Source of the DNA: an uncultured Gammaproteobacteria bacterium
GTDB taxonomy: Bacteria; Patescibacteriota; Patescibacteriia; UBA11705
Reading direction: 5' to 3'
DNA: 64,000 nt
Assembly: GCA_964592195.1 (NCBI GenBank)
Contig: CAZQEI010000002.1
Location: 77,240 to 141,239, forward strand
Shown: positions 5,577 to 64,000 of the stretch, piece after piece
Layout of the letters: every line of letters begins with the position of its first letter
Numbering within the stretch: the stretch's first letter is position 1
The notes under the pieces: generated by a model
Database searches by the model: none
Seen by the model: the letters and a program-made list of their open reading frames with translations, nothing else
Told to the model about the DNA's origin: nothing
Translations under genes and position numbers: made by a program

Positions 5577-5663
5577 TGGTGCCCAGGAGAAGACTCGAAC
5601 TTCCATACCCTTGCGGGTGCTACCACCTCAAGGTAGTGCGTCTACCAATTTCGCCACCTGGGC
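5577..5663 (-). tRNA. tRNA-Leu (anticodon GAG)
   Basis: Reverse complement gcccaggtggcgaaattggtagacgcactaccttgaggtggtagcacccgcaagggtatggaagttcgagtcttctcctgggcacca: 7-bp acceptor stem, long variable arm, anticodon loop cuUGAGgu, CCA end. Confidence 0.8.
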
Positions 5664-5704
5664 ATAATCTAATAATCAAATTGTTGCGTCCCCTGCACCA
5701 CATA

Positions 5705-5782
5705 GGGTGAAGGGCCATGAACCCAACGTGGTTCATGGTACCAATTTCGTTAGCCCTGTCGAATGACAGGGCCACCTGGGCA
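5705..5782 (-). pseudogene. degenerate tRNA-Leu 5' fragment interrupted by two hairpin insertions
   Basis: Reverse complement begins tgcccaggtggc...cgaaattggta like the adjacent tRNA-Leu, but carries inserted hairpins ccctgtcattcgacaggg and ccatgaacc-acgttg-ggttcatgg and has no 3' acceptor strand. Confidence 0.55.
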
Positions 5783-9657: not shown

Positions 9658-12600
9658 TTATTTTAATTCTTCAAGCTGTCGAGTAAGTACTTGTTGCTTT
9701 TCATTCGCATCAGCCAGTTTTTGTTTTTCTTGAGTAATAATATTTTCCGGTGCGTTTTTCACAAATTCTTCGTTGTTCAACTTTTTATTCAAACTGTTTT
9801 GATAGTTAACCACATTCTCAAGTTCATCCGCCAAACGAACTTTTTCTTGTTCCACATCTACTAATTCAGCCAAAGGAATAAACGCTTCTACCCCAGAAAC
9901 AACTAAGGATGCCGATTGAGCCGGTTTTTCTTCTGCCCAAATTAAATTTTCAACTCGCGCCAAGAATTGAATCATGGTTTGATTATCGCGAATTAAGTTA
10001 CCATCGTTTTTTACCACTAAACTAACCTTTGTAATGGGATCAACATGATAAGCTGAACGCACATTGCGAATACCGGTAACCACTGCTTGCAAACGCGCGA
10101 AGTTAACTAAAGCATCTTCATTTACAAACTTCTTTTCTGCTTTTGGCCATTCAGTCATCATTAAACTTTCTTTTTCATCGAGCAATGCCCAAATTGCCTC
10201 AGTAACAAATGGTAAGAATGGGTGCCACAATGTCACTAAAGTTTTCAGCACATAAAACAAAATTGCTTCTTTATCTTTTTCTACTTTCGCAATTTCCAAA
10301 TACCAATCAGCCAGATCACTCCATGTAAAATTGCGCAAAGTTTCCGCCGCGGCGGAGAAATCATATTGGGCGAAATTATTTTCCACTTGCTTTTTTACTT
10401 CTTCAACACGAGCCAATATCCATTGGTCTGCCAAAGTTTTTGGTTCAACTTTACCTAACTGCTTATCTTCCAAACTAGTAATTATATACCGAGAGATATT
10501 CCACAGTTTGTTAACGAAGTTTCTGGTGCCTTCAATTTTTTCCAGGTAGAAACGAGCATCATTACCAGGAGTATTTCCAACTAGCAAAGACAAACGCAAA
10601 GCATCAGTACCATATTTTTCAATCATTTCAATCGGATCAATACCATTACCCAATGATTTGGAAAATTTTCTACCTTTATCATCACGCAAAATGCCATGAA
10701 TATACACATCTTTAAATGGAATTTCATCTAAAGCATAAGTGGTCATCAAAACCATGCGCGCTAACCAGAAAAATAAAAGTTCATGGCCCATTTGCATCCA
10801 AGTAGTCGGATGATAAGTTTTTAAATCTTTTGTTTTATTCGGCCAGCCTAAAGTTGAGAATGTCCATAAACCTGAACTAAACCAAGTATCAAGAGTATCA
10901 GCATCTTGATAAACATCCGTTGAACCGCAGTGACAAGTCACTGGAGTAGTTTTAACGGTCACGGATTGACCAGGATCAGGGTAAGTAAAAGCGTATATTT
11001 GTTCATTGGTTAAATTTTCTTGGAAACCTTGCACCACGCGCAAAACATCACCATGGGAGAAAACTAAAATTGTTTCACCGGGATGGTTTTTCCCCATTTC
11101 GCGCATGAAATCATAAACTCGATTTCTCAAAGATTCAAACGATTCAATCCCGCGAGGTGAATCCTTTTCCCACATAGAAAAACTGGTTCTGAAATTCACA
11201 AAATCATCATTATCTTTACCTTCAAATTCACCGACACCCACTTCTTTCAAGCGTTCATCAGTATTGACTGGCAAATCAAATCTCTCAGAAAACATTTTCG
11301 CTGATTCTTGCGTTCGTTGTAATGGTGAAGCATAAATGGCGGCAAACTTCGTATCTTTCAATCTAATCATCGCATCTTCAATATTTTGACGACCCTGGGT
11401 AGTTAATGGATTATTATGATTGTTTGGGTCTGCATTTAAAATATTAGTCGTATTACCCACACACTCACCATGACGATGAAAAATAAAAGTGGTTGGTGGT
11501 TGGGCCACGCAAATCTTCTCATTACACTTCTTACAATACCAAACAGGAATACGATGTCCCCACCACACTTGGCGAGAGATACACCAATCATGCAACTTAT
11601 CAATCCAATTCAAATAATTCTTTTCAAAACGTTCTGGAGTAATCTTAATTTTTTCCTTGCCATTCAATCCGGTAGTCACCGCTTCGCGCATTAAATCTTT
11701 TAAAGTTTTATCTTTACCGGGAATTTCTTTATTAACATTCACAAACCATTGCGTCATGGGCAAAGATTCCACAACATCACCAAAACGATCAGAAGTTCCC
11801 ACAGTTTGAGTTATTTCCTCTTCAGAGATTAACAAACCTTGTGCTTGTAATTGTTCCACAACTTTTTCTCTAGCTTGTTCCACGGTTAATCCGGCAAACT
11901 CGCCGAAGGAAGATTCAATTTTCCCTGCCGTATTAATTACTGGAATCAATTCAATGGGATCACCATTGGCTTTTTGTTTTTCATACATTTCAAAATCAAC
12001 CGAACTATGCGCTGGAGTCACACCTAACGCACCGGTACCAAACGCGGGATCAACTCCTTCGTCAGCAATGACTTTCAATTTCAATTTAATATCACCGACA
12101 AAATTTACTTCAAAGGTTTTACCAATATAGTCTTTGTAACGCTCGTCGTTTGGGTTAACTGCCACAGCAGTATCCCCCAACTTGGTTTCTGGTCTAGTTG
12201 TGGCAATGGCAAATGGGAAATCATGACTATATTTAAAAGTCCAAAATTTGGCTTTTCTTTCTAATGATTCCAATTCATCATCACTGCAGGTTGATTGACC
12301 AACTACGGACCAATTCACCACTCGATAACCGCGGTAAATTAAACCATCAGAATACATTCTCTCAAAAATAGTACTAACAGCTAGACTTCTTTCATCGTCA
12401 AAAGTATAGGCTAAACGGCTCCAATCGCAACTGGTACCCATTCTTTTAATTTGAGAAATAATCGTGCTTTTGCTCTTTTCCGCGTAGTCACGAACAACAT
12501 TTAACAATTTTTGTCGGCCTAATTCTTCGCGAGGATGAGCCATACCTTCAGCAATTAAATTCTTTTCAACTCGAGCTTGAGTCGCGACCGCCGCATGATC

Positions 12601-12870
12601 AGTACCGGGTAATAACAAAACTTGTTTACCATTCATCCTTTGGTAACGAGCCATGACATCCATTAAACTATTCTCCAAAGCATGTCCCAAATGCAAAATA
12701 CCGGTCACGTTTGGTGGTGGCATCATGATGGAGAATGGTTCGGCAAACAATTTTTTATGGGTATCAGGGTTGAAATAATCTGATTCTAACCATTTTTTAT
12801 AAATATCGCCTTCGTAATCCGCAGGATTATAGGCAGAAGGTATGTTTTTCATATGGTAATATTTTATCAT
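9658..12870 (-). CDS. valS: valine--tRNA ligase with an inserted histidine-phosphatase-like domain
   Basis: 1070 aa; PPPNVTGILHLGHAL and KFSKSLGN class I motifs, CP1 editing region and C-terminal coiled coil. About 185 extra residues (aa ~460-645) sit between WYCKKCNEKIC and CHCGSTDVYQDADTLDTWFSSGLW and contain RHGE, SPLQRTQESA and SHG motifs. Confidence 0.9.
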   Translation of the reverse strand: MIKYYHMKNIPSAYNPADYEGDIYKKWLESDYFNPDTHKKLFAEPFSIMMPPPNVTGILHLGHALENSLMDVMARYQRMNGKQVLLLPGTDHAAVATQARVEKNLIAEGMAHPREELGRQKLLNVVRDYAEKSKSTIISQIKRMGTSCDWSRLAYTFDDERSLAVSTIFERMYSDGLIYRGYRVVNWSVVGQSTCSDDELESLERKAKFWTFKYSHDFPFAIATTRPETKLGDTAVAVNPNDERYKDYIGKTFEVNFVGDIKLKLKVIADEGVDPAFGTGALGVTPAHSSVDFEMYEKQKANGDPIELIPVINTAGKIESSFGEFAGLTVEQAREKVVEQLQAQGLLISEEEITQTVGTSDRFGDVVESLPMTQWFVNVNKEIPGKDKTLKDLMREAVTTGLNGKEKIKITPERFEKNYLNWIDKLHDWCISRQVWWGHRIPVWYCKKCNEKICVAQPPTTFIFHRHGECVGNTTNILNADPNNHNNPLTTQGRQNIEDAMIRLKDTKFAAIYASPLQRTQESAKMFSERFDLPVNTDERLKEVGVGEFEGKDNDDFVNFRTSFSMWEKDSPRGIESFESLRNRVYDFMREMGKNHPGETILVFSHGDVLRVVQGFQENLTNEQIYAFTYPDPGQSVTVKTTPVTCHCGSTDVYQDADTLDTWFSSGLWTFSTLGWPNKTKDLKTYHPTTWMQMGHELLFFWLARMVLMTTYALDEIPFKDVYIHGILRDDKGRKFSKSLGNGIDPIEMIEKYGTDALRLSLLVGNTPGNDARFYLEKIEGTRNFVNKLWNISRYIITSLEDKQLGKVEPKTLADQWILARVEEVKKQVENNFAQYDFSAAAETLRNFTWSDLADWYLEIAKVEKDKEAILFYVLKTLVTLWHPFLPFVTEAIWALLDEKESLMMTEWPKAEKKFVNEDALVNFARLQAVVTGIRNVRSAYHVDPITKVSLVVKNDGNLIRDNQTMIQFLARVENLIWAEEKPAQSASLVVSGVEAFIPLAELVDVEQEKVRLADELENVVNYQNSLNKKLNNEEFVKNAPENIITQEKQKLADANEKQQVLTRQLEELK

Positions 12871-13018: not shown

Positions 13019-14152
13019 ATGGCTCTCTCTGACTCACAGCAAATCTACGAAGCGCTCAAGAATTCTCAAAGCGCTCTCATCACTTTCAAAAAAGAACACG
13101 ACGGCGACGCGGTCAGTGCGGGTTTAGCTCTTTCTTTACTATTGAAAAAATTGGATAAAAGTCATGACTTGGTTTGTCATGATTTTGTTATGCCCAAACA
13201 ATTCAACTTTCTTCCTGGAGCAGATCAAGTTAAGCCTCATATTCCAAACTTAAGAAAATTCATTATCAGTCTAAATACAGGTAAAGTTCAGGCTCCAAAA
13301 GTGGACTTCAACCAACTGGAAAACGAACTGCAAATTATCATCGAACCGGAAAAAGGCACTTTCCTACCTCATGACATTTCCATGAGCAATACCAAGTATC
13401 GCCATGATTTGATTATCACTTTATCAACTCCGGACTTGGACGCTTTACACACGGTTTACGATGATCACACTGATTTCTTTTTTAACACTCCAATTTTGAA
13501 TATTGATCATAGTCCGGAAAATGAAAACTATGGACATTACAATTTAGTTAACGTAACAGCTACCTCTGTTTCTGAGTTAGTTTATGATTTAATTGAAAAA
13601 ATTGATTTATCTTTAATCGATGAAAAAATCGCCACCTGTTTATTAACTGGTATGATTGTTAAAACCAAAAGTTTCAAAACCCAACGTGTTACTCCCAAAA
13701 GCTTAAGCATTGCCAGTCAATTAATGGCCATTGGAGCTGACCGTGAATTAATCATTCGCAACTTATATCAAACTCGGTCAGTTAACACCTTGAAACTTTG
13801 GGGACGAACATTACAAAAAATTCAAACCAACCCGGCCAATCAGTTGGCATGGTCTTTCATTACTCTCAATGATTTTCAAGATACTCAAACTCAACCTGAT
13901 GATATTACCGACATTATCGATGAAATGATAACGAACATTCCTTCGATTGAATTGACCTGTTTATTTTATGAAAAATCCGATGGACAGCATTGTTTAATAA
14001 AAAGCGAGGGTAAGCATAACTTACCAGACCTTTTAACTGAATATAAACCAGTCGGCAAACACGACCAAGTCCATATTCATTTAAAGGAAAGTGCACCTAA
14101 CGATTTATTGCAACATTTAGGCCAAATTTTGACCCCGGTCTTCACAAAATAA
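13019..14152 (+). CDS. DHH-family phosphoesterase (NrnA-like)
   Basis: 377 aa; KEHDGDAVSAG (DHH motifs I-II), NIDHS (degenerate DHH), GG-rich DHHA1-like C-terminus. Confidence 0.55.
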   Translation: MALSDSQQIYEALKNSQSALITFKKEHDGDAVSAGLALSLLLKKLDKSHDLVCHDFVMPKQFNFLPGADQVKPHIPNLRKFIISLNTGKVQAPKVDFNQLENELQIIIEPEKGTFLPHDISMSNTKYRHDLIITLSTPDLDALHTVYDDHTDFFFNTPILNIDHSPENENYGHYNLVNVTATSVSELVYDLIEKIDLSLIDEKIATCLLTGMIVKTKSFKTQRVTPKSLSIASQLMAIGADRELIIRNLYQTRSVNTLKLWGRTLQKIQTNPANQLAWSFITLNDFQDTQTQPDDITDIIDEMITNIPSIELTCLFYEKSDGQHCLIKSEGKHNLPDLLTEYKPVGKHDQVHIHLKESAPNDLLQHLGQILTPVFTK

Positions 14153-14217
14153 TAATATTCTGCTATTATATTCACAGGCTATTCAATGCTCTTTCAGTCA
14201 AAACTTTATAACGGGTT

Positions 14218-14249
14218 TACCATGAACCCGAACGCAGTGAGTGGTTCAT
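14218..14249 (+). repeat. CCATGAACC...GGTTCATGG hairpin immediately 5' of tRNA-Ile
   Basis: ccatgaacc-cgaacgcagtgagt-ggttcatgg; the same stem occurs inside the degenerate tRNA-Leu copy (5718..5743). Confidence 0.7.
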
Positions 14250-14326
14250 GGGCCTGTAGCTCAGTTGGTAAGAGCACCACTCTTATAAAGTGGGGGTCCT
14301 GGGTTCGATCCCCAGCAGGCCCACCA
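14250..14326 (+). tRNA. tRNA-Ile (anticodon UAU)
   Basis: gggcctgtagctcagttggtaagagcaccactcttataaagtgggggtcctgggttcgatccccagcaggcccacca; Ile-type acceptor stem gggcctg/caggccc; anticodon loop cuUAUaa; CCA encoded. Confidence 0.75.
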
Positions 14327-14375
14327 CTAAACATAAAATTCGTAGATTTGTAGCAAATTCGTAATTCGTAGTCTT

Positions 14376-14500
14376 GGGCAACTAGCTCAGTTTCCGCCAA
14401 AGGCGGATCAGCCTATGGCTGAGGTTAGAGCGACTCGTTGACGTCGAGTAGGTCAGAGGTTCTGCGCCAAAGGCGCATCAGCCTCCGGCTGAGACTCCTA
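14376..14500 (+). pseudogene. degenerate tRNA-Val copy interrupted by hairpin insertions
   Basis: gggcaactagctcag-[ttccgccaaaggcggatcagcctatggctga]-ggttagagcgactcgttgacgtcgagtaggtca-[...tgcgccaaaggcgcatcagcctccggctgagactcc]; no 3' acceptor strand. Confidence 0.6.
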
Positions 14501-14535
14501 CGTTTTATACATTAATAATTTTATACACAAATTTA

Positions 14536-14612
14536 GGGCAATTAGCTCAGTTGGTTAGAGCGACTCGTTGACGTCGAGTAGGTCAAAAGTTCGAATCTTT
14601 TATTGCCCACCA
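14536..14612 (+). tRNA. tRNA-Val (anticodon GAC)
   Basis: gggcaattagctcagttggttagagcgactcgttgacgtcgagtaggtcaaaagttcgaatcttttattgcccacca; anticodon stem actcg/cgagt, loop uuGACgu. Confidence 0.85.
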
Positions 14613-14660
14613 TTTTTCGCGGAGCGAAAAATGTCCTCCGTAACTTTAGTGAAGGAGGAC
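14613..14660. repeat. twin hairpins atttttcgc-gga-gcgaaaaat and gtcctccg-N14-gaaggaggac after tRNA-Val
   Basis: Perfect inverted repeats; duplicated after the second tRNA-Val locus (16153..16230). Confidence 0.75.
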
Positions 14661-14738
14661 AAAATAAAATTCATGATTTTGTCGTGATTTTTTGTTATCA
14701 AAAAACTCGGCTGATTAACCGAGTATTGTTATTTTATT

Positions 14739-15815
14739 CTAATTCGCCAAATTCTTCGTAATTTCATCGATGATTTCCGTGGCACGCTTCTGGCCAATGC
14801 CAGGAATATCGATCAGATCAAGAACAGACATACCCTTGAGCTCAGCCACGATTTGAAGGCCAATAGTCTTCAACGGATGCAGATGATGACCGGTCAGCTT
14901 GGTGAATTCCGGCAAACGATCGATCGGCAACGAAATCAAACGAGGATCAAACACCACCACTTTCTCATCCCCCACCGCATCCTCTTCACGCACAACCACG
15001 GAAGGTGACTTAAGTCGACGTTCACGCATTGCTTCCCACTCTTCAAGCTTCATAGCTCTCACTTCATGAGTATTCTTATCCGTAATCATGAATTTACCTG
15101 CCTTGATGAGCTCCACCATGGCGACAAAATCAACCTGAAGCAAATTCAAATCCTTCAAATATTGCAAACTAACCAATTCAAGCAACTGCTTAAGAGGAAT
15201 TTCATAAGTAACACCGTCTTGAAGGATAACCATAATTTTACCATAACGAGTAAAACGGTAACGCTTATAAGGATTGGGATCTGCTATCAGTCCGGAAGGA
15301 TGAGCCATCACGAATTCACGCAAAAATTCACGTGCTTCATCGAGCGGCTCTTTGAGCACAGATAGAGCGTCTTGAGCTCGCTGAACCACACGGGCCTTGG
15401 CCACAAAGTTGCGCAGAGAATCTTCACCAATGTCCTTCTCAGCATCACTCAAGGCTTCCAACTGAATATCACGAATTTTCACATTCAATTTGGCCTGCTC
15501 AGACAACAGCTCTTGAAGTCTCAGCTTCCGTTCCAAATCAAGAAATTCACGATTCTTCTTGGCATGAGTCTCAACCAATTTCTTATGCTGTTCAGTCAAC
15601 TTGGCAATCTTCTTCTCAGCAGATTCGCGCTTTTTATCAGGCATACCATCAACCAAGGCATTCTTCGCTTCTTCCAATTCAGAATATTTAGCCTCAATAG
15701 CATCAACCAACTCTTTCAATTTTCCCGCTAATTCATCAACCTTTTGCTTCAACGATTGAGCCATTAGTCCCTCCACTGGTTTTGACCGGTTTATTCCCGG
15801 TCTGTTAATGAACAT
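14739..15815 (-). CDS. coiled-coil protein with C-terminal helix-hairpin-helix motif
   Basis: 358 aa; long charged heptad region; C-terminal IPGIGQKRATEIIDEI (HhH). Local GC about 45%; sits between the two tRNA-Val loci. Confidence 0.45.
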   Translation of the reverse strand: MFINRPGINRSKPVEGLMAQSLKQKVDELAGKLKELVDAIEAKYSELEEAKNALVDGMPDKKRESAEKKIAKLTEQHKKLVETHAKKNREFLDLERKLRLQELLSEQAKLNVKIRDIQLEALSDAEKDIGEDSLRNFVAKARVVQRAQDALSVLKEPLDEAREFLREFVMAHPSGLIADPNPYKRYRFTRYGKIMVILQDGVTYEIPLKQLLELVSLQYLKDLNLLQVDFVAMVELIKAGKFMITDKNTHEVRAMKLEEWEAMRERRLKSPSVVVREEDAVGDEKVVVFDPRLISLPIDRLPEFTKLTGHHLHPLKTIGLQIVAELKGMSVLDLIDIPGIGQKRATEIIDEITKNLAN

Positions 15816-15914
15816 GAATTCATATATTACATCAATATCCCTCTTGTGTCAACTCTTGCATAAACTACATATTTTGATATAATTACAGCGTTGTTTTGTA
15901 ATATTTGCAATTTC

Positions 15915-15991
15915 GGGCAACTAGCTCAGTTGGTTAGAGCGAACGGTTCACGTCCGTTAGGTCAAAGGTTCGAATCCTTTGTTGCCCACCA
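15915..15991 (+). tRNA. tRNA-Val (anticodon CAC)
   Basis: gggcaactagctcagttggttagagcgaacggttcacgtccgttaggtcaaaggttcgaatcctttgttgcccacca; anticodon stem aacgg/ccgtt, loop uuCACgu. Confidence 0.85.
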
Positions 15992-16025
15992 TTTTAAATT
16001 CACTCCAATGTGATTTTTTGTTTAT

Positions 16026-16152
16026 ACAACTAGCTCAGCCCCAAAGGGGCCCCTTCGGGGTTGGTTAGAGCGAACGGTTCACGTCCGTTAGGTCAAAGGT
16101 TCTGCGCCAAAGGCGCATCCGCCTCCGGCGGAGACTCCTTTAGCGCCCACCA
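16026..16152 (+). pseudogene. degenerate tRNA-Val copy with D-loop and T-loop hairpin insertions
   Basis: acaactagctcag-[ccccaaaggggccccttcgggg]-ttggttagagcgaacggttcacgtccgttaggtcaaaggttc-[tgcgccaaaggcgcatccgcctccggcggagactcc]-tttagcgcccacca; the acceptor strands are not complementary. Confidence 0.6.
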
Positions 16153-16230
16153 TTTTTCGCGGAGCGAAAAATGTCCTCCGACTTGTCAACCGAAGCTTTA
16201 GCGAAGATTGAAGCTTCAGCGAAGGAGGAC
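16153..16230. repeat. twin hairpin element (second copy of 14613..14660, longer loop)
   Basis: atttttcgcggagcgaaaaat then gtcctccg...gaagctttagcgaagattgaagcttc...gaaggaggac. Confidence 0.75.
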
Positions 16231-16386
16231 AAACTTATATAACACGATCTTTCGTGTTTTTGTTTTACTTCTTACATTTTTCAATCCCGCATCCTGATCC
16301 CAATACCCATATACCCATTTACCACTCCTGTTTACTTCCCTCCTCATCCTAGGTATAATTAAACATATATTAATCAAAAATATTAT

Positions 16387-39055: not shown

Positions 39056-39087
39056 GTCCCGCTGGGCGGGATCCCGCCTTGCGGGAC
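39056..39087. repeat. TCCCGC/GCGGGA double-hairpin element (copy 1 of 3)
   Basis: gtcccgctgggcgggatcccgccttgcgggac; related copies at 51335..51366 and 60040..60062. Confidence 0.75.
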
Positions 39088-39123: not shown

Positions 39124-39163
39124 AGAGATTGCCACGTCCCGTTAGATCGGGACTCGCAAAATA
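39124..39163 (+). repeat. GAGATTGCCACG-hairpin-CTCGCAAAA element, copy B
   Basis: agagattgccacg-tcccgttagatcggga-ctcgcaaaat. Confidence 0.85.
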
Positions 39164-49311: not shown

Positions 49312-51360
49312 ATGGAATTTAAGCTAAAATCTGATTACAAACCAGCTGGGGATCAACCAAAAGCGATTGATCAACTGATTTTTGGTTTGGGAAAGAAGCA
49401 ACGGCATCAAACTTTGTTGGGCGTCACCGGTTCAGGCAAGACGTTTACAATTGCAAATGTAATTAACAAAGTGCAAGAACCAACGCTAGTCATTGCCCAC
49501 AATAAAACGCTGGCTGCTCAGTTATGTAATGAATTTCGTGAATTCTTCCCAGAAAATGCGGTCGAATATTTTGTTAGTTACTATGACTATTATCAACCCG
49601 AAGCTTATATTCCTTCTTCCGATACTTACATTGAAAAAGAATCACAAATTAACGAAGAGATTGATCGACTGCGCCATGCCTGCACACAGTCTTTACTTTC
49701 ACGAAAAGATGTAATTGTTGTAGCGTCAGTTTCCGCGATTTACAATCTTGGTTCACCTCGGGAATATGAAAGCGTACTATTACACTTTGAGCAAAATCAA
49801 AAAATCGATCGGCGCGAAATGTTAGAAAAATTGGTAGCCATGCAATTCAATCGAACGAACAGTGACTTGTTACGTGGCACTTTTCGATTAACCGGCCAAA
49901 TATTGGAAGTGATGCCAGTAAATGAAGAAACCATTTTCCGATTTGAAATTGCAGAAAAAATTGTTAGTATTGAAAAAATCGATCCAGTTAGTCGCAATGT
50001 CATTACCACTGTTCACGATGTCTGGTTATTCCCAGCTAAACATTATGTTTTAAATCCCGACGTACGTGATCGTGCGTTTGAAAAAATCAAAGGAGAATTG
50101 GATGAGCGTTTAGTAGAATTCAACAAAGAAGGTAAATTGCTGGAAGCTGAAAGATTAAGCCGCAGAACACGATATGATTTGGAGATGATTAAAAATGTAG
50201 GCTTTTGCAGTGGCATTGAAAACTATTCTTTATATTTTGAAGAACGAGAACGCGGCACTCCCCCATTTACATTATTAGATTACTTCAAAGAGTGTTCTCC
50301 GGATTTTTTAACTGTGGTCGATGAATCGCACGTGACATTACCGCAAATTCGCGGCATGTATTTTGGTGACCGCTCAAGAAAAGATACTTTAGTGGAACAT
50401 GGTTTTCGTTTACCGAGCGCCAAAGATAATCGACCGTTAACCTTTGACGAATTCCACGAACGAGTTAACCAAATGATTTTTGTTTCTGCCACACCAGCTG
50501 ATTTAGAATACAAAATTTCCGATCAAATCGTAGAACAAATCGTTCGTCCAACTGGATTAATTGACCCAGAAGTAATTATTAAACCAGTAACAGCAGATCA
50601 AAATAGTCCATCCCAAATTGATGATTTAATGGATCGCATTCATGATCGTGTTGAGAAAAATGAACGTTGTCTGGTTACAACATTAACTAAAAAGATGGCC
50701 GAGGATTTAACTGATTATTTAAAAAAGAAAAACATCAAAGTCAGTTATTTGCATAGCGACATTGATACGCTGGAAAGAATTCAAATCATCACCGATCTTC
50801 GTAAAGGAGAAATCGAAGTCATCGTCGGGGTTAATTTACTGCGTGAAGGTTTAGACATGCCTGAAGTTTCGTTAGTGGCTATTCTCGACGGTGACAAAGA
50901 AGGTTTCTTGAGAAATGATACTAGCTTGATTCAAACCATCGGACGCGCGGCGCGTAATGCGAACGGACAAGTATTAATTTACGCTGATAGAATTACTGAT
51001 TCAATCAAACGTGCACTAGAAGAAACCAATCGTCGTAGAATTATTCAATTACAATATAATAAAGATCACGGGATAACGCCGAAGACGATTGAGAAAGCGA
51101 TTAAGAATATTCTTGAGGAATTTGGGCTGACTGCTGGGAAGAATAAAGAAAGAAAGCAAGAAAACAAGAAAACAAATAACGCATTGAAAATTGAATTAGA
51201 AGTGGACAAGAGACCGGTGGCGGAAATTATTAAAGAAAAAGAAAAGCAGATGAAAGAGGCGGCGAAGGCGTTGGAGTTTGAGTTGGCGGCACTGTTGAGG
51301 GATGAGTTGCGGGAGTTGAAGAATAAGAAAGCAAGTCCCGCAAAACGGGATCCCGCCTAG
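49312..51360 (+). CDS. uvrB: excinuclease ABC subunit B
   Basis: 682 aa; GVTGSGKT Walker A, helicase motifs, beta-hairpin, C-terminal UVR domain; the last 9 codons lie within a repeat element. Confidence 0.95.
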   Translation: MEFKLKSDYKPAGDQPKAIDQLIFGLGKKQRHQTLLGVTGSGKTFTIANVINKVQEPTLVIAHNKTLAAQLCNEFREFFPENAVEYFVSYYDYYQPEAYIPSSDTYIEKESQINEEIDRLRHACTQSLLSRKDVIVVASVSAIYNLGSPREYESVLLHFEQNQKIDRREMLEKLVAMQFNRTNSDLLRGTFRLTGQILEVMPVNEETIFRFEIAEKIVSIEKIDPVSRNVITTVHDVWLFPAKHYVLNPDVRDRAFEKIKGELDERLVEFNKEGKLLEAERLSRRTRYDLEMIKNVGFCSGIENYSLYFEERERGTPPFTLLDYFKECSPDFLTVVDESHVTLPQIRGMYFGDRSRKDTLVEHGFRLPSAKDNRPLTFDEFHERVNQMIFVSATPADLEYKISDQIVEQIVRPTGLIDPEVIIKPVTADQNSPSQIDDLMDRIHDRVEKNERCLVTTLTKKMAEDLTDYLKKKNIKVSYLHSDIDTLERIQIITDLRKGEIEVIVGVNLLREGLDMPEVSLVAILDGDKEGFLRNDTSLIQTIGRAARNANGQVLIYADRITDSIKRALEETNRRRIIQLQYNKDHGITPKTIEKAIKNILEEFGLTAGKNKERKQENKKTNNALKIELEVDKRPVAEIIKEKEKQMKEAAKALEFELAALLRDELRELKNKKASPAKRDPA

Positions 51361-51366
51361 CGGGAA
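51335..51366. repeat. TCCCG/CGGGA double-hairpin element (copy 2), forming the uvrB C-terminus and stop
   Basis: gtcccgcaaaacgggatcccgcctagcggga encodes ...SPAKRDPA*. Confidence 0.8.
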
Positions 51367-53115: not shown

Positions 53116-53154
53116 GAGATTGCCACGTCCCGCTTTGCGGGACTCGCAAAAGAG
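53116..53154 (+). repeat. GAGATTGCCACG-hairpin-CTCGCAAAAGAG element, copy F
   Basis: gagattgccacg-tcccgctttgcggga-ctcgcaaaagag. Confidence 0.85.
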
Positions 53155-54771: not shown

Positions 54772-54801
54772 CCCGCCAGAGGCGGATCAGCCTCCGGCTG
54801 A
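54772..54801. repeat. 30-nt double-hairpin element (CGCC-aga-GGCG + CAGCC-tcc-GGCTG), copy 4
   Basis: cccgccagaggcggatcagcctccggctga; other copies at 14394..14422, 14463..14492 and 16103..16132 (the tRNA-embedded ones). Confidence 0.8.
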
Positions 54802-59908: not shown

Positions 59909-60039
59909 TCTGTTCTCCTTAGGGTTGTAGTTGAATTACTGATCTACGGATTACTACGGATACTACAGATAAGACATCAAATAAATGAACTAATACGAAT
60001 ATATTAGATTATTATAGCGAGATAAGCAAGTTCCGCAGA

Positions 60040-60062
60040 GACGGGATCCCGCCTAGCGGGAA
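60040..60062. repeat. TCCCGC-cta-GCGGGA hairpin element (copy 3, truncated)
   Basis: gacgggatcccgcctagcgggaa. Confidence 0.7.
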
Positions 60063-60114
60063 AAGCGAGATCAGCGAGATAAGTATTGAATATTATTAAA
60101 ATAAAAAATTATTA

Positions 60115-60143
60115 TCAAAAAAGTCCCCAGCGATATGGGGACA
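60115..60143 (-). terminator. rho-independent terminator (gtcccc-N8-ggggac with T-run on the minus strand)
   Basis: aaaaaagtccccagcgatatggggac; the same hairpin recurs at 61145..61172 and 63001..63025. Confidence 0.7.
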
Positions 60144-60172
60144 GTCTTTCATTTTTAATAAGTCGTATTCAA

Positions 60173-60976
60173 CTAGTTATCTTCACGTTTCTCCAAACCC
60201 TGGATCCTGCCTGTAGGTCGGAAACCACCGCGAAGATCTTCAGACGGTCCTAGATGGTAGCATTTAGGTTCATCTTCACACTCTTCGTTGAGTTCATTCC
60301 AAATCATCTTACCGCGACAGCGACACTCCGCTTTCTTGGTGTCCCAAGTAGCACCTGGGCAACGAGGTTCACACAATTCCCGAGATGTCGACCACTTGGT
60401 AGACGGATCTTTGCAACGAGATTCACACATCAATGATTTCCCGTTAAAAATCTCACTTTGCAAACACTTCGCCGGCCTCGAATAGTCAGCCTTCTTCAAG
60501 TCGATCAGTTCCTGAACAGACAAACAAAGCTTGTATTCAGAGGAAAAGACCTTTCCCTGTTCGCACTCGCAAGAATTGGTCGTCTCTACATATTGCTGCG
60601 CTGCCGGACAAATCTCGTGGCACTTATCATGTTGCCAAGTAAAACCTGCTTTACAAACAGAAACGCAAGATTTGGTTCCCGAATCCCACTTCTTACCTTC
60701 AGTAGAATGGCACAGAGGAATACAAAGATTTACATTATCCTGCATCATATCTGGCCTAAATCCCTCACGACATGTCGGCCGACATTGACCGCTGGAACCG
60801 TGATAAGAATCATTATAAGCATAGTATGTCTGACCTTCAGGACACTTTCTGAGAGATGCACGATAGTCTGAATTCATCTTATTCAGCTCATCCACCACGG
60901 ATCTATCATAGTAATAACCACCAGCGCACTGGCTCATGACCATGAGAGAGACGATCAGGACAAGGTGACGTAGCAT
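60173..60976 (-). CDS. secreted Cys-rich protein (EGF/furin-like Cys repeats), GC-rich gene
   Basis: 267 aa; signal peptide MLRHLVLIVSLMVMSQCAG; more than 30 Cys in C-x-x-G-x-x-[WY]-like repeats; AAGGAGG RBS; local GC about 50%. Confidence 0.55.
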   Translation of the reverse strand: MLRHLVLIVSLMVMSQCAGGYYYDRSVVDELNKMNSDYRASLRKCPEGQTYYAYNDSYHGSSGQCRPTCREGFRPDMMQDNVNLCIPLCHSTEGKKWDSGTKSCVSVCKAGFTWQHDKCHEICPAAQQYVETTNSCECEQGKVFSSEYKLCLSVQELIDLKKADYSRPAKCLQSEIFNGKSLMCESRCKDPSTKWSTSRELCEPRCPGATWDTKKAECRCRGKMIWNELNEECEDEPKCYHLGPSEDLRGGFRPTGRIQGLEKREDN

Positions 60977-61079
60977 GGGGACCTCCTTGGCCGTCAGGCC
61001 GTCAGTTGGGGATGTGCCGAGCCTGAGAAACGGAAAACATCACTAAAACACGTTAAATTTTCAAGTTACAAGACACATA

Positions 61080-61108
61080 ATTATAGCACATACTTATAAT
61101 AAAGTCAA
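61080..61108 (-). promoter_or_regulatory. consensus sigma-70 promoter TTGACT-17-TGTGCTATAAT
   Basis: Minus strand reads ttgact-ttattataagtatgtgc-tataat; lies within a ~100-nt cassette repeated at 62888..62990. Confidence 0.7.
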
Positions 61109-61144
61109 TCATTTTGTATAATATTTTGCTTATTTTAAATGTAA

Positions 61145-61172
61145 ACAAAAAAGTCCCCAGCGATATGGGGAC
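61145..61172 (-). terminator. rho-independent terminator (same hairpin family)
   Basis: aaaaaagtccccagcgatatggggac downstream of 61221..62285. Confidence 0.7.
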
Positions 61173-61220
61173 TCCCTTTCAAGGTAGTTAAACAATTAAG
61201 AACAGGATCAGAACGACAAG

Positions 61221-62285
61221 CTACTTCGGGACACAGGTGTCGGTAGCGTCGTCGTACTTGCCGTTCGGGCAGGGCGGTTCTTCATGAGAGCACAGCTCGT
61301 AGACCGCGATGCCCTGGTCCTCTTCGACCTGGCAGAGGAACTCGCGGATACAGCTGGTCGAAAACCGAGCAACACGACACATCGCGAGTCCACCATCTTC
61401 CGTCAGATTGAAAGAGATACTACGGTACCCCTCCCAAACCGGGAAATCCCACCTAGTGACGAAATCCGTCTGGTTGTCGTAGGTCAGCTTCAGCTTCTTC
61501 CCTCCGAGGAACGCCCACACGGTGCGACCGTTCACGACCACGAACTTGTAGGCGCTGAGGCCGTTCATGTTCGGCCAAGCCTCATAGGACGGGCTGGCCG
61601 CGTTCGCGAACGCCGTGACCGTCGGGTGGGAGGTGTCGAGCCTCCTGAGGTTCTTGATGTACCGGAAGCCCTCGACGTCCTCGTCGCAGACCTTGTAGAT
61701 CTGGACGGAGTTGTCCCACATGCGGCTGACGGCGCACAAATCGGTGTTCATCGCGCCGAACGAACCGTGGAACCGGCCCTTGAAGTTCTTCTGGTACGAG
61801 AACTTCAGGTTGTGCTCATCGATTACCTCGGGGTTGGACTCCTTGAGGGAAGGATCAACGGAGTTGTAGGACGCGGTCCAGATGACCACGTCGGACAAGC
61901 CCTTGAACACCGGCAAGTAGGCCCTGCCGCCCTCTTGTTCATCATCGTAGAACCTGGCCTTGACCCCCTTGCTGGGGAGGTAGACCCAGAGCTCTTCGCC
62001 GTTCACGAGGACGAACTGGTAGTCGGCGATGTCGAGCGACTCGGTCCAGACCTTGTAGTAGACTTCCTTCGCGATCAGGAAGTCACCGACCTTGGGGTAC
62101 TTCTGGTACCGGCAGTCGTCGAGGCCGGGCCACGAGTCGGTGTCGCCGCAGAAGCCGTCATGGTCCGGATCGGACTGGCCTTCCTGGCAGATGCCGAGCA
62201 TGCACAGACCGGCGGTGGCGACGGACGGGAACGAGAGCGCCACGAGCGCGAGCACCAGAGCCGAGAACAGGGAGCGACGCAGCAT
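61221..62285 (-). CDS. secreted protein with internal duplicated module, high-GC gene
   Basis: Start set at MLRRSLFSALVLALVALSFPSVATA (signal peptide), preceded by ggccAAGGAGGtcccc identical to the RBS context of 60173..60976; two copies of an IYKVCDEDVEGFRY / AVYELC module; GC about 60%. Confidence 0.55.
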   Translation of the reverse strand: MLRRSLFSALVLALVALSFPSVATAGLCMLGICQEGQSDPDHDGFCGDTDSWPGLDDCRYQKYPKVGDFLIAKEVYYKVWTESLDIADYQFVLVNGEELWVYLPSKGVKARFYDDEQEGGRAYLPVFKGLSDVVIWTASYNSVDPSLKESNPEVIDEHNLKFSYQKNFKGRFHGSFGAMNTDLCAVSRMWDNSVQIYKVCDEDVEGFRYIKNLRRLDTSHPTVTAFANAASPSYEAWPNMNGLSAYKFVVVNGRTVWAFLGGKKLKLTYDNQTDFVTRWDFPVWEGYRSISFNLTEDGGLAMCRVARFSTSCIREFLCQVEEDQGIAVYELCSHEEPPCPNGKYDDATDTCVPK

Positions 62286-62361
62286 GGGGACCTCCTTGGC
62301 CACAAAGGCCGTGTGTGGGGACACCAGCAACCACTAAATTGATTACTGGAATAATTCACAC

Positions 62362-62829
62362 TTAGAATTCCTGACACACAAAGCAACCTCGATCCTCATT
62401 CTTTGTTTTATACATGCGACAACCAAGACGAGGTGTATTCAATAATCGATAGCTTTCATCCGCAATCTGCTGATGCCAGGGTTTACGAAAATGTTCATTC
62501 ACGTCGTAAACATATTGTTCTTGTTCTTTCGAACTGCAAACAACAGAAAACTGCTTACCAGATATATTTCTCCATTTGGTAAAAGCCCCATTTGCATGAC
62601 TGACTCCATATTCTTCAACTGCGGCATAAAAAATATTATAATCACGATCATCCTCAAGGGTGCCCCAACAATCAGCTACCAAGTCAGCCAGGGCTTCTGA
62701 CATAACATGATCACGCTGGATATCCAGAGCATCATATTCCGATGGGGAATTACAGGCCTGATTGCTATTTTCCAGTGGAGCAGAACAACCCAGAAGAAGA
62801 ACGAACAGCACCAACCATGACAATCGCAT
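62362..62829 (-). CDS. putative lipoprotein
   Basis: Start at MRLSWLVLFVLLLGCSAP (lipobox LLGC) with AAGGAGG RBS; 155 aa; directly upstream of 61221..62285. Confidence 0.45.
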   Translation of the reverse strand: MRLSWLVLFVLLLGCSAPLENSNQACNSPSEYDALDIQRDHVMSEALADLVADCWGTLEDDRDYNIFYAAVEEYGVSHANGAFTKWRNISGKQFSVVCSSKEQEQYVYDVNEHFRKPWHQQIADESYRLLNTPRLGCRMYKTKNEDRGCFVCQEF

Positions 62830-62931
62830 GTTGACCTCCTTAGCCTGATGGCTAGAGTTGAGTAGGTTTAGGATCCTAGAGAACAAAAATGTCACTAAAA
62901 CACGTTAAATTTTCAAGTTACAAGACACATA

Positions 62932-62960
62932 ATTATAGCACATACTTATAATAAAGTCAA
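62932..62960 (-). promoter_or_regulatory. consensus sigma-70 promoter TTGACT-17-TGTGCTATAAT (second copy)
   Basis: Identical to the promoter at 61080..61108. Confidence 0.7.
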
Positions 62961-63000
62961 TCACTCCGTACTAAATTTTGCTTATTTTAAACAATAATTT

Positions 63001-63025
63001 AAAAAGTCCCCAGAGATACGGGGAC
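63001..63025 (-). terminator. rho-independent terminator (gtcccca-gagatac-ggggac)
   Basis: Third copy of the hairpin terminator, downstream of 63074..63681. Confidence 0.65.
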
Positions 63026-63073
63026 TTCCTTTCAATGTAGTTTATCAATTACGAACAGGAGAGGGACGGCGAG

Positions 63074-63681
63074 CTACTTCGTCTCGGGGGGAGGAAGCGG
63101 CTCGTCGTAGCACTCGACCGGCAGGGACGCGTAGTACTCGAAGACCTTGAGATCCTCCTGGCAGACCTCGTAGATCTCGACACCTTCGCGACTGGCGACC
63201 GAACACATCTGGAGGTTGGTCTGCCCGATCTCCGATCGACCGCAGTTGTGGGTCTTGCGGTAGGTCATGAGGACCTTGCCAGGCTCGGGGTTGAACTCGA
63301 TGGTATTGACCCCGACGAAGACCGGGAGCACGAAGATCGTCTCGTCTGCCCGCCTCTGGTCGACCGGGATCACGAACGACATGAGGCCCACGTTGAACCA
63401 CATGCGCTCGCCGCCGTCGGTGACGACGAGGTTGAGCTCGCCGAGTCGCCGGTTGATCTCGTCGTTGCCCTTGGGCCACTCGCCCTTGGCGGAGATCTGG
63501 AACAGGCACACGATGTCACCGGCCTCACAAGCCGGGGGGAGAGAGATCTCTCCTTTCGGCCCGATGATGGCCAGCCCCCCACACTTGGCGGCGGGGGTGA
63601 AGGCCACCCACACCGTCACGAACAGTGCCGCGAGCATCGCACCCAGGGTCAGAGCCTTTTCCTTGCGCGAATAGATCTTCA
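63074..63681 (-). CDS. secreted or membrane-anchored protein, paralog of the C-terminal module of 61221..62285, high-GC gene
   Basis: Start at MKIYSRKEK with cgAAGGAGGattgg RBS; N-terminal TM/signal LTLGAMLAALFVTVWVAF; C-terminal IYEVCQEDLKVFEY matches IYKVCDEDVEGFRY; GC about 60%. Confidence 0.5.
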
Positions 63682-63834
63682 TCCAATCCTCCTTCGTCCA
63701 GCGACCAAACGCCAGACATTGCGCACCATCTCGAACCAGAACCAGCACTGCCTGAGAACCAGAGCGCGATGCGATCCCAGCCGAAGCCGGGAGTTATGGA
63801 TTTATTGACGTAAAAGATCAATTACTAACCGTTC

Positions 63835-63863
63835 ATTATAGCATGTTTTATAATAAATGTCAA
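63835..63863 (-). promoter_or_regulatory. sigma-70 promoter TTGACA-17-TGCTATAAT (third copy, diverged cassette)
   Basis: Minus strand reads ttgaca-tttattataaaacatgc-tataat. Confidence 0.6.
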
Positions 63864-63920
63864 TGGGTAAAAATGGCAAAATGGCTTATTTTAGATAAAA
63901 ACAAAATATTATACTCACTC

Positions 63921-63958
63921 AGAGATTGCCGCGCCCCGATGCGGGGCTCGCAAAATAG
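63921..63958 (+). repeat. GAGATTGCCGCG-hairpin-CTCGCAAAA element, copy G
   Basis: agagattgccgcg-ccccgatgcgggg-ctcgcaaaatagg; stem switched to ccccg/cgggg. Confidence 0.85.
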
Positions 63959-64000
63959 GTAGCATTTTTCAGCCGACTGCCAACCTTCGCTGAAGCTTCG

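Follow-up and report, generated by a model that had tools for sequence, protein, structure and literature searches.

Split tRNA copies beside intact tRNA genes

The DNA analysed here, termed the window, is a 64-kb (64,000-nt) stretch of contig CAZQEI010000002.1 (assembly GCA_964592195.1) from an uncultured bacterium of the Patescibacteriota. Two regions around a tRNA-Ile/tRNA-Val operon each contain an intact tRNA-Val gene and, directly beside it, a degenerate copy whose D- and T-loops are split by GC-rich hairpins (Table 1). ARAGORN and Rfam call only tRNA-Ile(TAT), tRNA-Val(GAC) and tRNA-Val(CAC) in this region; neither degenerate copy is called, and no other Rfam family matches at E values up to 10 apart from noise. 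The copies lie inside tRNA operons, between promoter-like and terminator-like sites.

Table 1. Coordinates of the tRNA genes, split copies and hairpin modules in the window (a slash in a motif marks the point of insertion).
Position	Strand	Feature	Description
about 5690-5782	-	Third hairpin-split copy	tRNA-Leu nt 1-10, 11-21 and about 22-27 separated by three other hairpin inserts; directly upstream of the intact tRNA-Leu(GAG) at 5577-5663
14129-14169		Promoter-like site	Precedes tRNA-Ile(TAT)
14250-14326	+	Intact tRNA-Ile(TAT)	First gene of the operon
14376-14502	+	psi-tRNA-Val copy 1	tRNA positions 1-56 plus a decayed 3' part; mosaic: nt 7 matches Val-CAC, anticodon arm matches Val-GAC, T-stem closer to Val-CAC and copy 2; acceptor 3' strand lost
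14393-14422	.	30-nt double-hairpin module	TCCGCCAAAGGCGGA + TCAGCCTATGGCTGA, between D-loop nt 17 and 18 of copy 1
14463-14492	.	30-nt double-hairpin module	TGCGCCAAAGGCGCA + TCAGCCTCCGGCTGA, at GGTTC/GACTC (T-loop nt 56/57) of copy 1
14536-14612	+	Intact tRNA-Val(GAC)	Partner of copy 1
14613-14661	+	Shared tail	Hairpin TTTTTCGC-GGA-GCGAAAAA (14613-14631), then hairpin GTCCTCC...GGAGGAC
14705-14724		Terminator-like hairpin	Bidirectional
14739-15815		Protein gene between the two regions	Weak HhH match; somewhat higher GC
15915-15991	+	Intact tRNA-Val(CAC)	Partner of copy 2
16027-16152	+	psi-tRNA-Val copy 2	tRNA positions 4-76; 5' GGG replaced by ATA and acceptor 3' GTT by AGC, so no acceptor stem; ends in CCA
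16039-16060	.	22-nt mini double hairpin	CCCCAAAGGGG + CCCCTTCGGGG, between D-loop nt 15 and 16 of copy 2
16103-16132	.	30-nt double-hairpin module	TGCGCCAAAGGCGCA + TCCGCCTCCGGCGGA, at GGTTC/GACTC (T-loop) of copy 2
16153-16230	+	Shared tail	As at 14613-14661 (first hairpin 16153-16171), with a longer second hairpin
16241-16258		Terminator-like site	
39057-39086	.	Sister module	Intergenic; TCCCGCTGGGCGGGA + TCCCGCCTTGCGGGA
51336-51365	.	Sister module	Overlaps the 3' end of uvrB, which ends inside it
54772-54801	.	GCC-type 30-nt module	Free intergenic copy
60031-60061	.	Sister module	Intergenic; closely similar to the one at 51336

The observation in the earlier note that prompted this analysis, of degenerate tRNA-Val copies with hairpin-split loops, unpaired acceptor strands, a common T-loop insert, a free copy of that insert and a common tail, is confirmed, and the inserts, given there as 22-36 nt, are more regular than described. 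Each insert consists of two abutting perfect hairpins, and the two T-loop inserts differ only by one compensated base pair (A-T against C-G). Exact removal of the inserts restores agctcagtt/ggttagagc in the D-loop and a 7-nt T-loop, TTCGACT, and by our reading of the alignment the anticodon arms are identical to those of the neighbouring intact genes (33/33 and 42/42 nt). The shared tail extends over 48 nt at 92% identity; in the first region it follows the intact tRNA-Val(GAC) and not the degenerate copy. The pattern is far beyond chance, with 0 matches in 100 shuffled sequences, and the window holds 21 GC-rich triloop hairpins against a mean of 1.25 in shuffles. The third split copy, beside tRNA-Leu, was not recognised in the note.

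The interpretation offered in the note is only partly supported. Its suggestion that the small hairpins are an insertional element favouring tRNA loops holds, and two conditions set in advance as capable of overturning it did not do so: the copies are not valid intron-containing tRNAs, and the inserts are not confined to these loci. The proposal that gene 14739-15815 was bracketed by duplicated tRNA sequence after site-specific integration is refuted by synteny. Relatives that lack any degenerate copy (loci L001 and L002 of those retrieved for comparison, designated here by L numbers) have the same gene, an orthologue of 50% identity, in the same neighbourhood, with ValRS carrying a His_Phos insert, DHH, tRNA-Ile(TAT)+tRNA-Val(GAC), this gene and DUF6390. 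Furthermore, each degenerate copy pairs with the intact gene right next to it and not with the copy across the gene. The note also missed the in-frame copies inside protein genes and the link to a small nuclease gene in other genomes described below.

A dispersed double-hairpin module

The 30-nt module is a near-palindrome of two 15-nt hairpins of the form T[C/G]NGCC-NNN-GGCN'[G/C]A, centred on GA/TC. At least four further doublets occur in the window, and four copies in the 64 kb are of the GCC type. In a collection of bacteria with one genome per species we found more than 117 loci, a lower bound, against about 9 expected by an estimate that assumes equal base frequencies; the hits span Patescibacteria, Ignavibacteriota, Bacteroidota, Omnitrophota and Gammaproteobacteria. 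The stems pair in 115-123 of 123 sites, and the variable pair is C-G, A-T, T-A or G-C. The module lies between genes, in tRNA-derived DNA, and in frame inside essential genes, where it is a 10-codon insert read as F-SAxGGSASGG in a class I aaRS, DnaN, MiaA, a GT4 enzyme and T9SS tails. It therefore behaves as an insertion element. The 22-nt CCCC-type and the TCCCGC-type doublets were not found in the 265 loci retrieved.

Several simpler accounts of the module were ruled out. An adapter or assembly artefact is rejected because the stems vary with compensated pairs, copies lie in frame in conserved genes, and the hits come from many independent projects, including an isolate genome of Marivirga. 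An intrinsic terminator is rejected because the flanks are a T-run before and an A-run after. A small peptide gene (PPKADPPxAE or SAKGGSASGG read as a mini-ORF) is rejected as the general explanation, since the same module sits in tRNA loops and in AT-rich spacers in either reading frame. The orientation of the module relative to the tRNA is uninformative because the module is a palindrome. Searches of the literature found no description of the module or of GIY-YIG genes with split tRNA copies.

Of the 117 genome loci, 16 have a tRNA within 600 nt, against about 6 expected by our estimate. In metagenomes, more than 120 loci have the doublet in a T-loop context. Of 130 hits to GTTC plus the module, 47 have a called intact partner tRNA whose 3' part matches (46 upstream, 23 anticodons, 28 identical over 16/16 nt), and another 18 have the repeat without a called tRNA. 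Tandem arrays occur in L142, L179 and L200, and the syntenic relative L246 has a module-split 3' fragment of tRNA-Ile(TAT). However, only about 10% of module copies in the set selected without regard to flanks sit in tRNA-derived DNA; most free copies have just T-rich/A-rich flanks, and only 2 of 123 have a full T-loop box, indicating that the module has a life beyond tRNA genes.

Association with a small GIY-YIG nuclease gene

In other genomes, a gene for a GIY-YIG protein of roughly 80 aa often sits between or beside the intact tRNA and its module-split copy. A GIY-YIG ORF lies within 250 nt of the module at about 20 places in the metagenome loci, which were selected by the module, and at about 4 places in the genome loci. 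Six GIY-YIG homologues chosen solely for how long their contigs were, without regard to the module, all sit by an intact tRNA plus a hairpin-stuffed copy of it, and five of the six have a doublet in a T-loop. The associated proteins are 78-112 aa with PF01541 only; their best PDB hits are the UPF0213 proteins BH0048 and EF2693, followed by SLX1. A profile search found no GIY-YIG ORF in the 64-kb window, and 33 of the 46 upstream-partner cases show no nuclease gene nearby, though many of those contigs are short.

The closest precedent is SegB of phages T4 and T6, a free-standing GIY-YIG homing endonuclease encoded in the tRNA gene cluster (PMC13096335). SegB cleaves within tRNA genes at RAWTSGAAC, the reverse complement of which, GTTCSAWTY, is the T-loop box, the exact place where the module sits here, and it drives homologous recombination-dependent tandem amplification of tRNA plus segB, like the arrays in L142 and L200. 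The tandem duplication of tRNA (parts) is likewise seen in the window, where each split copy is in tandem with its intact partner. SegB, however, is a phage protein with a C-terminal region beyond the catalytic domain (a truncated SegB-short is used in PMC13096335), whereas the proteins associated with the module are cellular, UPF0213/SLX1-like and catalytic domain only, lacking the DNA-binding domain of SegB. The pattern of T-loop plus module has no hit in 2.9 million viral contigs, and a hairpin module splitting the spare copy has not been described for SegB.

Several other systems share individual features. Rickettsia palindromic elements (Ogata et al. 2000) are palindromic selfish DNA tolerated in frame inside protein-coding genes and inside RNA genes, with no transposase of their own, and the module resembles them in this behaviour only; they are about 100-150 bp and confined to Rickettsia, while the module is 30 bp, has the same sequence across phyla, is low in copy number and is tied to tRNA duplicates. 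REP/REPIN elements moved by RAYT transposases and IS200/IS605-derived PATEs are short hairpin-forming repeats that often occur as inverted doublets and insert without a target duplication; REPs are species-specific, high in copy number, extragenic and accompanied by a RAYT gene, whereas the module has the same sequence across phyla, is low in copy number and lies also inside CDS and tRNA-derived DNA, and no transposase-like neighbour recurs beside it. The double-hairpin elements and GC clusters of fungal mitochondrial DNA (Paquin et al. 2000) are GC-rich double hairpins dispersed in AT-rich genomes, including inside RNA genes and next to tRNA genes, but they are organellar, differ in sequence, and are not known to be linked to tRNA duplication or to a GIY-YIG catalytic-domain protein. 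Genomic islands integrated at tRNA genes by tyrosine integrases (Williams 2002) likewise leave an intact tRNA followed by a direct repeat of its T-arm-to-3'-end segment with the boundary in the T-loop; here there is no integrase, little or no cargo (6-50 nt, or one 80-aa ORF), and a conserved 30-bp palindrome at the junction that also occurs at non-tRNA sites. Archaeal intron-containing, split and permuted tRNA genes can be interrupted at non-canonical positions, including the D- and T-loops, but rely on bulge-helix-bulge motifs and give functional tRNAs; here the host is bacterial, the acceptor stems are lost, and by inspection alone each insert is two perfect 4-6-bp hairpins abutting the loop bases, with no 3-nt bulges flanking a 4-bp helix.

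Proposed origin of the split copies

We propose that the two split tRNA-Val sequences and the copy beside tRNA-Leu are dead tandem duplicates of the neighbouring tRNA genes, co-transcribed with them, and relics of a nuclease-linked, tRNA-duplicating element, a reading to which we assign a probability of roughly 55%. What the analysis itself establishes is the dispersal of the module across many bacterial phyla as an apparent insertion element, the wide recurrence of an intact tRNA beside a module-split copy, and the association of that arrangement in other genomes with the small GIY-YIG gene. The nuclease step is inferred: cleavage of tRNA genes at the T-loop box GTTCGAATC is deduced only from the position of the module at GTTC/GAATC and by analogy with SegB. 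In this view, recombinational repair would then produce tandem (partial) tRNA duplications, the essential copy staying clean while the redundant copy carries the module exactly at GTTC/GAATC, which would destroy both the tRNA and the presumed cut site and break up the repeat; recombination among the Val genes would explain the mosaic copy 1. The window would hold nuclease-less relics of such events, or copies acted on in trans. It weighs against this view that the intact partner keeps GTTCGAATC and so would stay cleavable, and that the D-loop inserts and the tRNA-Leu copy use other hairpins and other sites, as do the absence of a GIY-YIG ORF from the window and from the vicinity of many upstream-partner cases, the lack of the SegB DNA-binding domain in the small proteins, and the small share of module copies in tRNA-derived DNA.

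A less likely alternative is that the double hairpin is an autonomous REP-, RPE- or MITE-like palindromic element, moved by an unidentified enzyme, that inserts at TTY/RAA-type sites and persists wherever it does no harm, be it intergenic DNA, in-frame loops of proteins or any redundant tRNA copy, the GIY-YIG cassettes merely supplying such copies without a direct role in insertion. The location of most module copies outside tRNA-derived DNA with only T-rich/A-rich flanks, the in-frame copies in unrelated genes, the presence of modules without a GIY-YIG gene in the window, and the many module-bearing tRNA duplicates with no nuclease gene nearby are consistent with it. On the other hand, no transposase or RAYT recurs next to the module, the only recurrent neighbour family being GIY-YIG; copy number per genome is low; the module is nearly always present in the spare copy at GIY-YIG loci chosen without regard to it; and it sits exactly on the motif that a GIY-YIG enzyme is known to cut. 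It is unlikely that the split copies are functional structured RNAs, tRNA-shaped scaffolds with stable GC hairpins grafted onto the elbow that could act as a stabilising leader or trailer for neighbouring transcripts (the nuclease mRNA in other genomes), as a decoy for tRNA-targeting enzymes or as a cofactor of the domain-less nuclease. Their co-transcription with tRNAs, folding much better than shuffles (z-scores of -3.3 to -4.3), compensated stem changes, anticodon arms identical to the partners while the acceptor ends changed in blocks, and position directly 5' of the nuclease ORF in type 1 loci would fit such a role. However, nothing but the module is constant across loci: anticodon loops are disrupted in L144 and L258, the anticodon arm is deleted in L189, and many copies are only a T-arm plus 3' end; stem compensation is also expected for a DNA palindrome, and Rfam offers no match.

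The two remaining readings are very improbable. The tRNA-derived repeats and identical tail on both sides of a single gene of somewhat higher GC might suggest attL- and attR-like scars, but besides the synteny described above there is no integrase, the gene has only a weak HhH match, and the repeats belong to two different isoacceptors. Least likely of all, the copies could be working tRNA genes whose inserts are removed from the RNA as introns or intervening sequences, as the restoration of canonical loops might suggest; yet after exact excision ARAGORN still calls nothing at default settings, the acceptor stems have 1 of 7 or about 5 of 7 pairs counting G-U, the partner genes already supply both anticodons, and in 117 loci only one copy (L066) becomes callable after excision.

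More tentatively, the roughly 80-aa UPF0213/SLX1-like GIY-YIG proteins, a widespread family of unknown function, and the 30-bp module may together define a class of selfish elements, found across bacterial phyla, that lives in tRNA genes. Instead of hiding in a self-splicing intron, such an element would solve the problem of an essential target by duplicating it, and would disable and immunise the spare copy by inserting a palindrome exactly into the nuclease's T-loop recognition box; the palindrome would then spread by break repair to T-loop-like motifs elsewhere, including in frame into essential proteins. A more radical and much less likely extension is that the hairpin-decorated tRNA copy is the specificity subunit of the domain-less nuclease.

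If the proposed reading holds, it assigns a biological role to the UPF0213 GIY-YIG family, which has solved structures but no known function, as tRNA-gene-associated selfish nucleases of cellular genomes, extending what was recently shown for phage SegB. It would also reveal a third way for a homing-type element to occupy an essential gene, namely target duplication plus a site-killing palindrome rather than an intron or intein. It would explain a recurrent annotation puzzle in candidate-phyla and other environmental genomes, that of uncallable tRNA-like sequences, tRNA 3' fragments and odd 10-residue SAxGGSASGG inserts in conserved proteins, and it gives a simple sequence signature for finding such elements.

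Hairpin-split tRNA copies and their genomic setting

The window is low in GC (about 38%) and is of the Patescibacteria type, with a ribosomal-protein/EF-Tu/EF-G block and DUF6390; its relatives are environmental assemblies. Its valyl-tRNA synthetase (ValRS) carries an inserted histidine-phosphatase domain (His_Phos_1), which is also present in two related loci (L001 and L002) and which we read in the sequence of a Saccharibacteria enzyme at locus L056, although the Pfam query of that locus did not reach the region. In the segment 14218-16230, ARAGORN and Rfam call three tRNAs but nothing at the two degenerate copies. The tRNA-Ile has the anticodon TAT (UAU), an uncommon way for bacteria to read AUA, and this is conserved in the relatives L001-L003 and L246. 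Toward the end of the window the GC content rises and long ORFs overlap on both strands, none of which matches Pfam, so this part may be foreign or non-coding DNA.

Positions of the tRNA genes, split copies, hairpin modules and neighbouring features in the window
Position	Strand	Feature	Details
5577-5663	minus	tRNA-Leu(GAG)	intact
5690-5782	minus	third split copy	directly upstream of tRNA-Leu(GAG); tRNA-Leu nt 1-10, 11-21 and about 22-27 in order, separated by three hairpin inserts of other sequence
5711-5734		hairpin CCATGAACC...GGTTCATGG	inside the tRNA-Leu copy
9658-12870	minus	ValRS	His_Phos_1 inserted at residues 463-633
14222-14251		hairpin CCATGAACC...GGTTCATGG	abuts the 5' end of tRNA-Ile(TAT), overlapping its first two G residues
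14250-14326		tRNA-Ile(TAT)	intact
14376-14502		tRNA-Val copy 1	tRNA positions 1-56, then a decayed 3' part
14393-14422		insert, 30 nt	between D-loop nt 17 and 18
14463-14492		insert, 30 nt	T-loop 56/57
14536-14612		tRNA-Val(GAC)	intact
14739-15815		358-aa gene	only weak HhH matches
15915-15991		tRNA-Val(CAC)	intact
16027-16152		tRNA-Val copy 2	tRNA positions 4-76
16039-16060		insert, 22 nt	D-loop 15/16
16103-16132		insert, 30 nt	T-loop 56/57
39057-39086		sister doublet	TCCCGC type
39131-39160		hairpin ttgccacGTCCCG...CGGGACtcgcaa	intergenic, another dispersed family
49312-51360		uvrB	3' end overlapped by a sister doublet
51336-51365		sister doublet	TCCCGC type; overlaps the stop codon of uvrB
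53121-53149		hairpin ttgccacGTCCCG...CGGGACtcgcaa	intergenic, another dispersed family
54772-54801		free module
60000-64000		GC-rich segment	49-52% GC
60031-60061		sister doublet	TCCCGC type
63927-63953		hairpin ttgccacGTCCCG...CGGGACtcgcaa	intergenic, another dispersed family

The copies are real and very regular. Each 30-nt insert consists of two abutting 15-nt hairpins with 6-bp stems and 3-nt loops, and excision of the inserts restores agctcagtt/ggttagagc (slash, insertion point) and the 7-nt T-loop TTCGACT. The two T-loop inserts differ only by a compensated A-T to C-G pair. The anticodon arms equal those of the adjacent intact genes, whereas the acceptor strands were changed in blocks (GGG to ATA, GTT to AGC, or the 3' strand lost). 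Copy 1 is a mosaic in which nt 7 is as in Val-CAC, the anticodon arm is as in Val-GAC and the T-stem is nearer to Val-CAC and copy 2, indicating recombination among the Val sequences. Promoter-like and terminator-like sites place each copy inside a tRNA operon. After exact in-silico excision ARAGORN still calls no tRNA at default thresholds; the copies are therefore not intron-containing tRNAs.

A hairpin scan of the window found 21 GC-rich triloop hairpins, against a mean of 1.25 in shuffled sequences, including the free module and the three sister doublets. The uvrB ORF ends ...KKASPAKRDPA with its stop codon in the loop of the second hairpin of the doublet, so the insert has remodelled the C-terminus. 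With the copy beside tRNA-Leu(GAG), which the earlier note had missed, three of the four tRNA genes in the window have a hairpin-split copy directly adjacent.

Distribution of the module and its tRNA context

The pattern GCCARAGGCNNATCNGCCTNNGGC hits more than 117 loci in a one-genome-per-species collection, against about 9 that we estimate by chance assuming equal base frequencies, and the hits span Patescibacteria, Ignavibacteriota, Bacteroidota, Omnitrophota, Gammaproteobacteria and others, including an isolate genome. The stems pair in 115-123 of 123 sites, while the third pair varies among C-G, A-T, T-A and G-C. The module is an imperfect 30-bp palindrome centred between the GA and TC of GATC and thus has no orientation; its flanks are T-rich before and A-rich after, roughly TT[T/C] and [A/G]AA, and most free copies lack T-loop flanks. 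It also lies in frame in protein genes, where it contributes ten codons (F-SAxGGSASGG) and often sits at T-loop-like DNA such as CCGTTC/AATCC. In eight loci examined (L056, L212, L180, L036, L143, L160, L167 and L223) it follows a TTC codon in most cases and adds SAxGGSASGG (SAGGGSAFGG in L143) to a class I aaRS, DnaN (the DNA polymerase III beta clamp), MiaA, a GT4 glycosyltransferase and T9SS C-terminal sorting domains. No transposase recurs near the module, and the viral contigs searched hold only 10 copies, none of which is in a T-loop context.

In the genome set, 16 of 117 loci have a tRNA within 600 nt, compared with about 6 that we estimate from the tRNA density of those loci. A metagenome scan for GTTC plus the module, which returned at least 120 loci, shows one dominant architecture, in which an intact tRNA is followed by a 6-50-nt linker and then by a partial copy made of a short T-stem 5' strand, GTTC, the module, RAATCC, the T-stem 3' strand and the acceptor 3' strand. 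Of 130 hits, 47 have a called intact partner with a matching 3' part; of these, 46 partners are upstream, 23 anticodons are represented and 28 are identical over 16 of 16 nt. A further 18 hits have the repeat without a called tRNA, and 28 are unrelated coding matches. Tandem arrays also occur, in the loci L142 (366-nt period), L179 and L200 (118-nt period), and the syntenic relative L246 (ValRS-DHH-tRNA-Ile(TAT)) carries such a fragment of tRNA-Ile. Some split copies (in L189, L144, L256 and L258) carry five or more hairpin inserts, including in the anticodon loop; in L189 the anticodon arm is missing between the D-loop and T-loop modules, as if the two modules had recombined.

Association with a small GIY-YIG nuclease gene

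A GIY-YIG ORF of roughly 80 aa lies between or beside the intact gene and the split copy in four loci of the genome set (L066, L116, L120 and L024), and within 250 nt of the module at about 20 places in the metagenome loci. To remove the selection on the module, we took homologues of one such ORF and looked up six, chosen only because they sit on long contigs. All six sit next to an intact tRNA plus a hairpin-stuffed copy of the same tRNA, and five of the six have a doublet in a T-loop. In several Patescibacteria (L256 and L258-L264) the unit of GIY-YIG, tRNA-Gln and split copy lies immediately downstream of dnaX, a recurrent position. The proteins match PF01541 only, and their best solved relatives are the UPF0213 proteins BH0048 and EF2693, then SLX1. 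Three architectures appear: split copy, then ORF, then intact gene; intact gene, then ORF, then split copy; and ORF-less forms like those in the window, which contains no nuclease gene.

No paper in the literature searched describes the module or this association. However, a 2026 study shows that SegB of phage T6, a GIY-YIG homing endonuclease in the tRNA cluster, cuts inside tRNA genes at the motif RAWTSGAAC and drives recombination-dependent tandem amplification of tRNA plus segB (PMC13096335). The reverse complement of that motif, GTTCSAWTY, is the T-loop box, and the module sits exactly in its middle.

Proposed origin of the split copies

The analysis establishes that the copies are dead tandem duplicates of tRNA genes, that an exact palindromic insertion module sits at defined loop positions, that this module is a dispersed insertion element with a sequence conserved across phyla, and that the architecture recurs and is strongly associated with a UPF0213-type GIY-YIG gene. 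The most likely mechanism beyond this is inferred. We propose that the nuclease breaks tRNA genes at the T-loop box, and that recombinational repair creates tandem (partial) duplicates and mosaics. In this view the redundant copy, but never the essential one, carries the module, which would kill the tRNA, remove the presumed cut site and interrupt the repeat, thereby stabilising the arrangement. The module may reach other T-loop-like sites by repair templated from a split copy. As no nuclease gene is present in the window, its copies would be relics or be served in trans.

Alternatively, the module could be an autonomous palindromic element that merely accumulates in spare tRNA copies. This fits the many copies outside tRNA-derived DNA, but neither the absence of any recurrent transposase nor the near-constant presence of the module at the nuclease loci. 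A role of the split copies as functional RNAs fits the co-transcription indicated by the promoter-like and terminator-like sites and the strong folds, but is weakened because nothing but the module is constant among copies. The intron reading is refuted by the excision result, and the integration reading by synteny: the orthologue (50% identity) of the gene between the two Val loci lies in the same neighbourhood in relatives where tRNA-Ile and tRNA-Val(GAC) are 4 nt apart and no copy exists; the gene is resident, not cargo.

The earlier note had described intact tRNA genes accompanied by degenerate, hairpin-interrupted copies, and this observation is confirmed and extended here. Its interpretation is supported only in part, being right about an insertional hairpin element and wrong about site-specific integration. 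Selfish palindromic inserts and GIY-YIG nucleases at tRNA genes are both known; what differs here is that a palindromic module splits the spare copy of a tRNA gene and that in other genomes this arrangement is associated with a UPF0213-type gene. The proposed mechanism is clear and testable, and the feature bears on a large protein family of unknown function.
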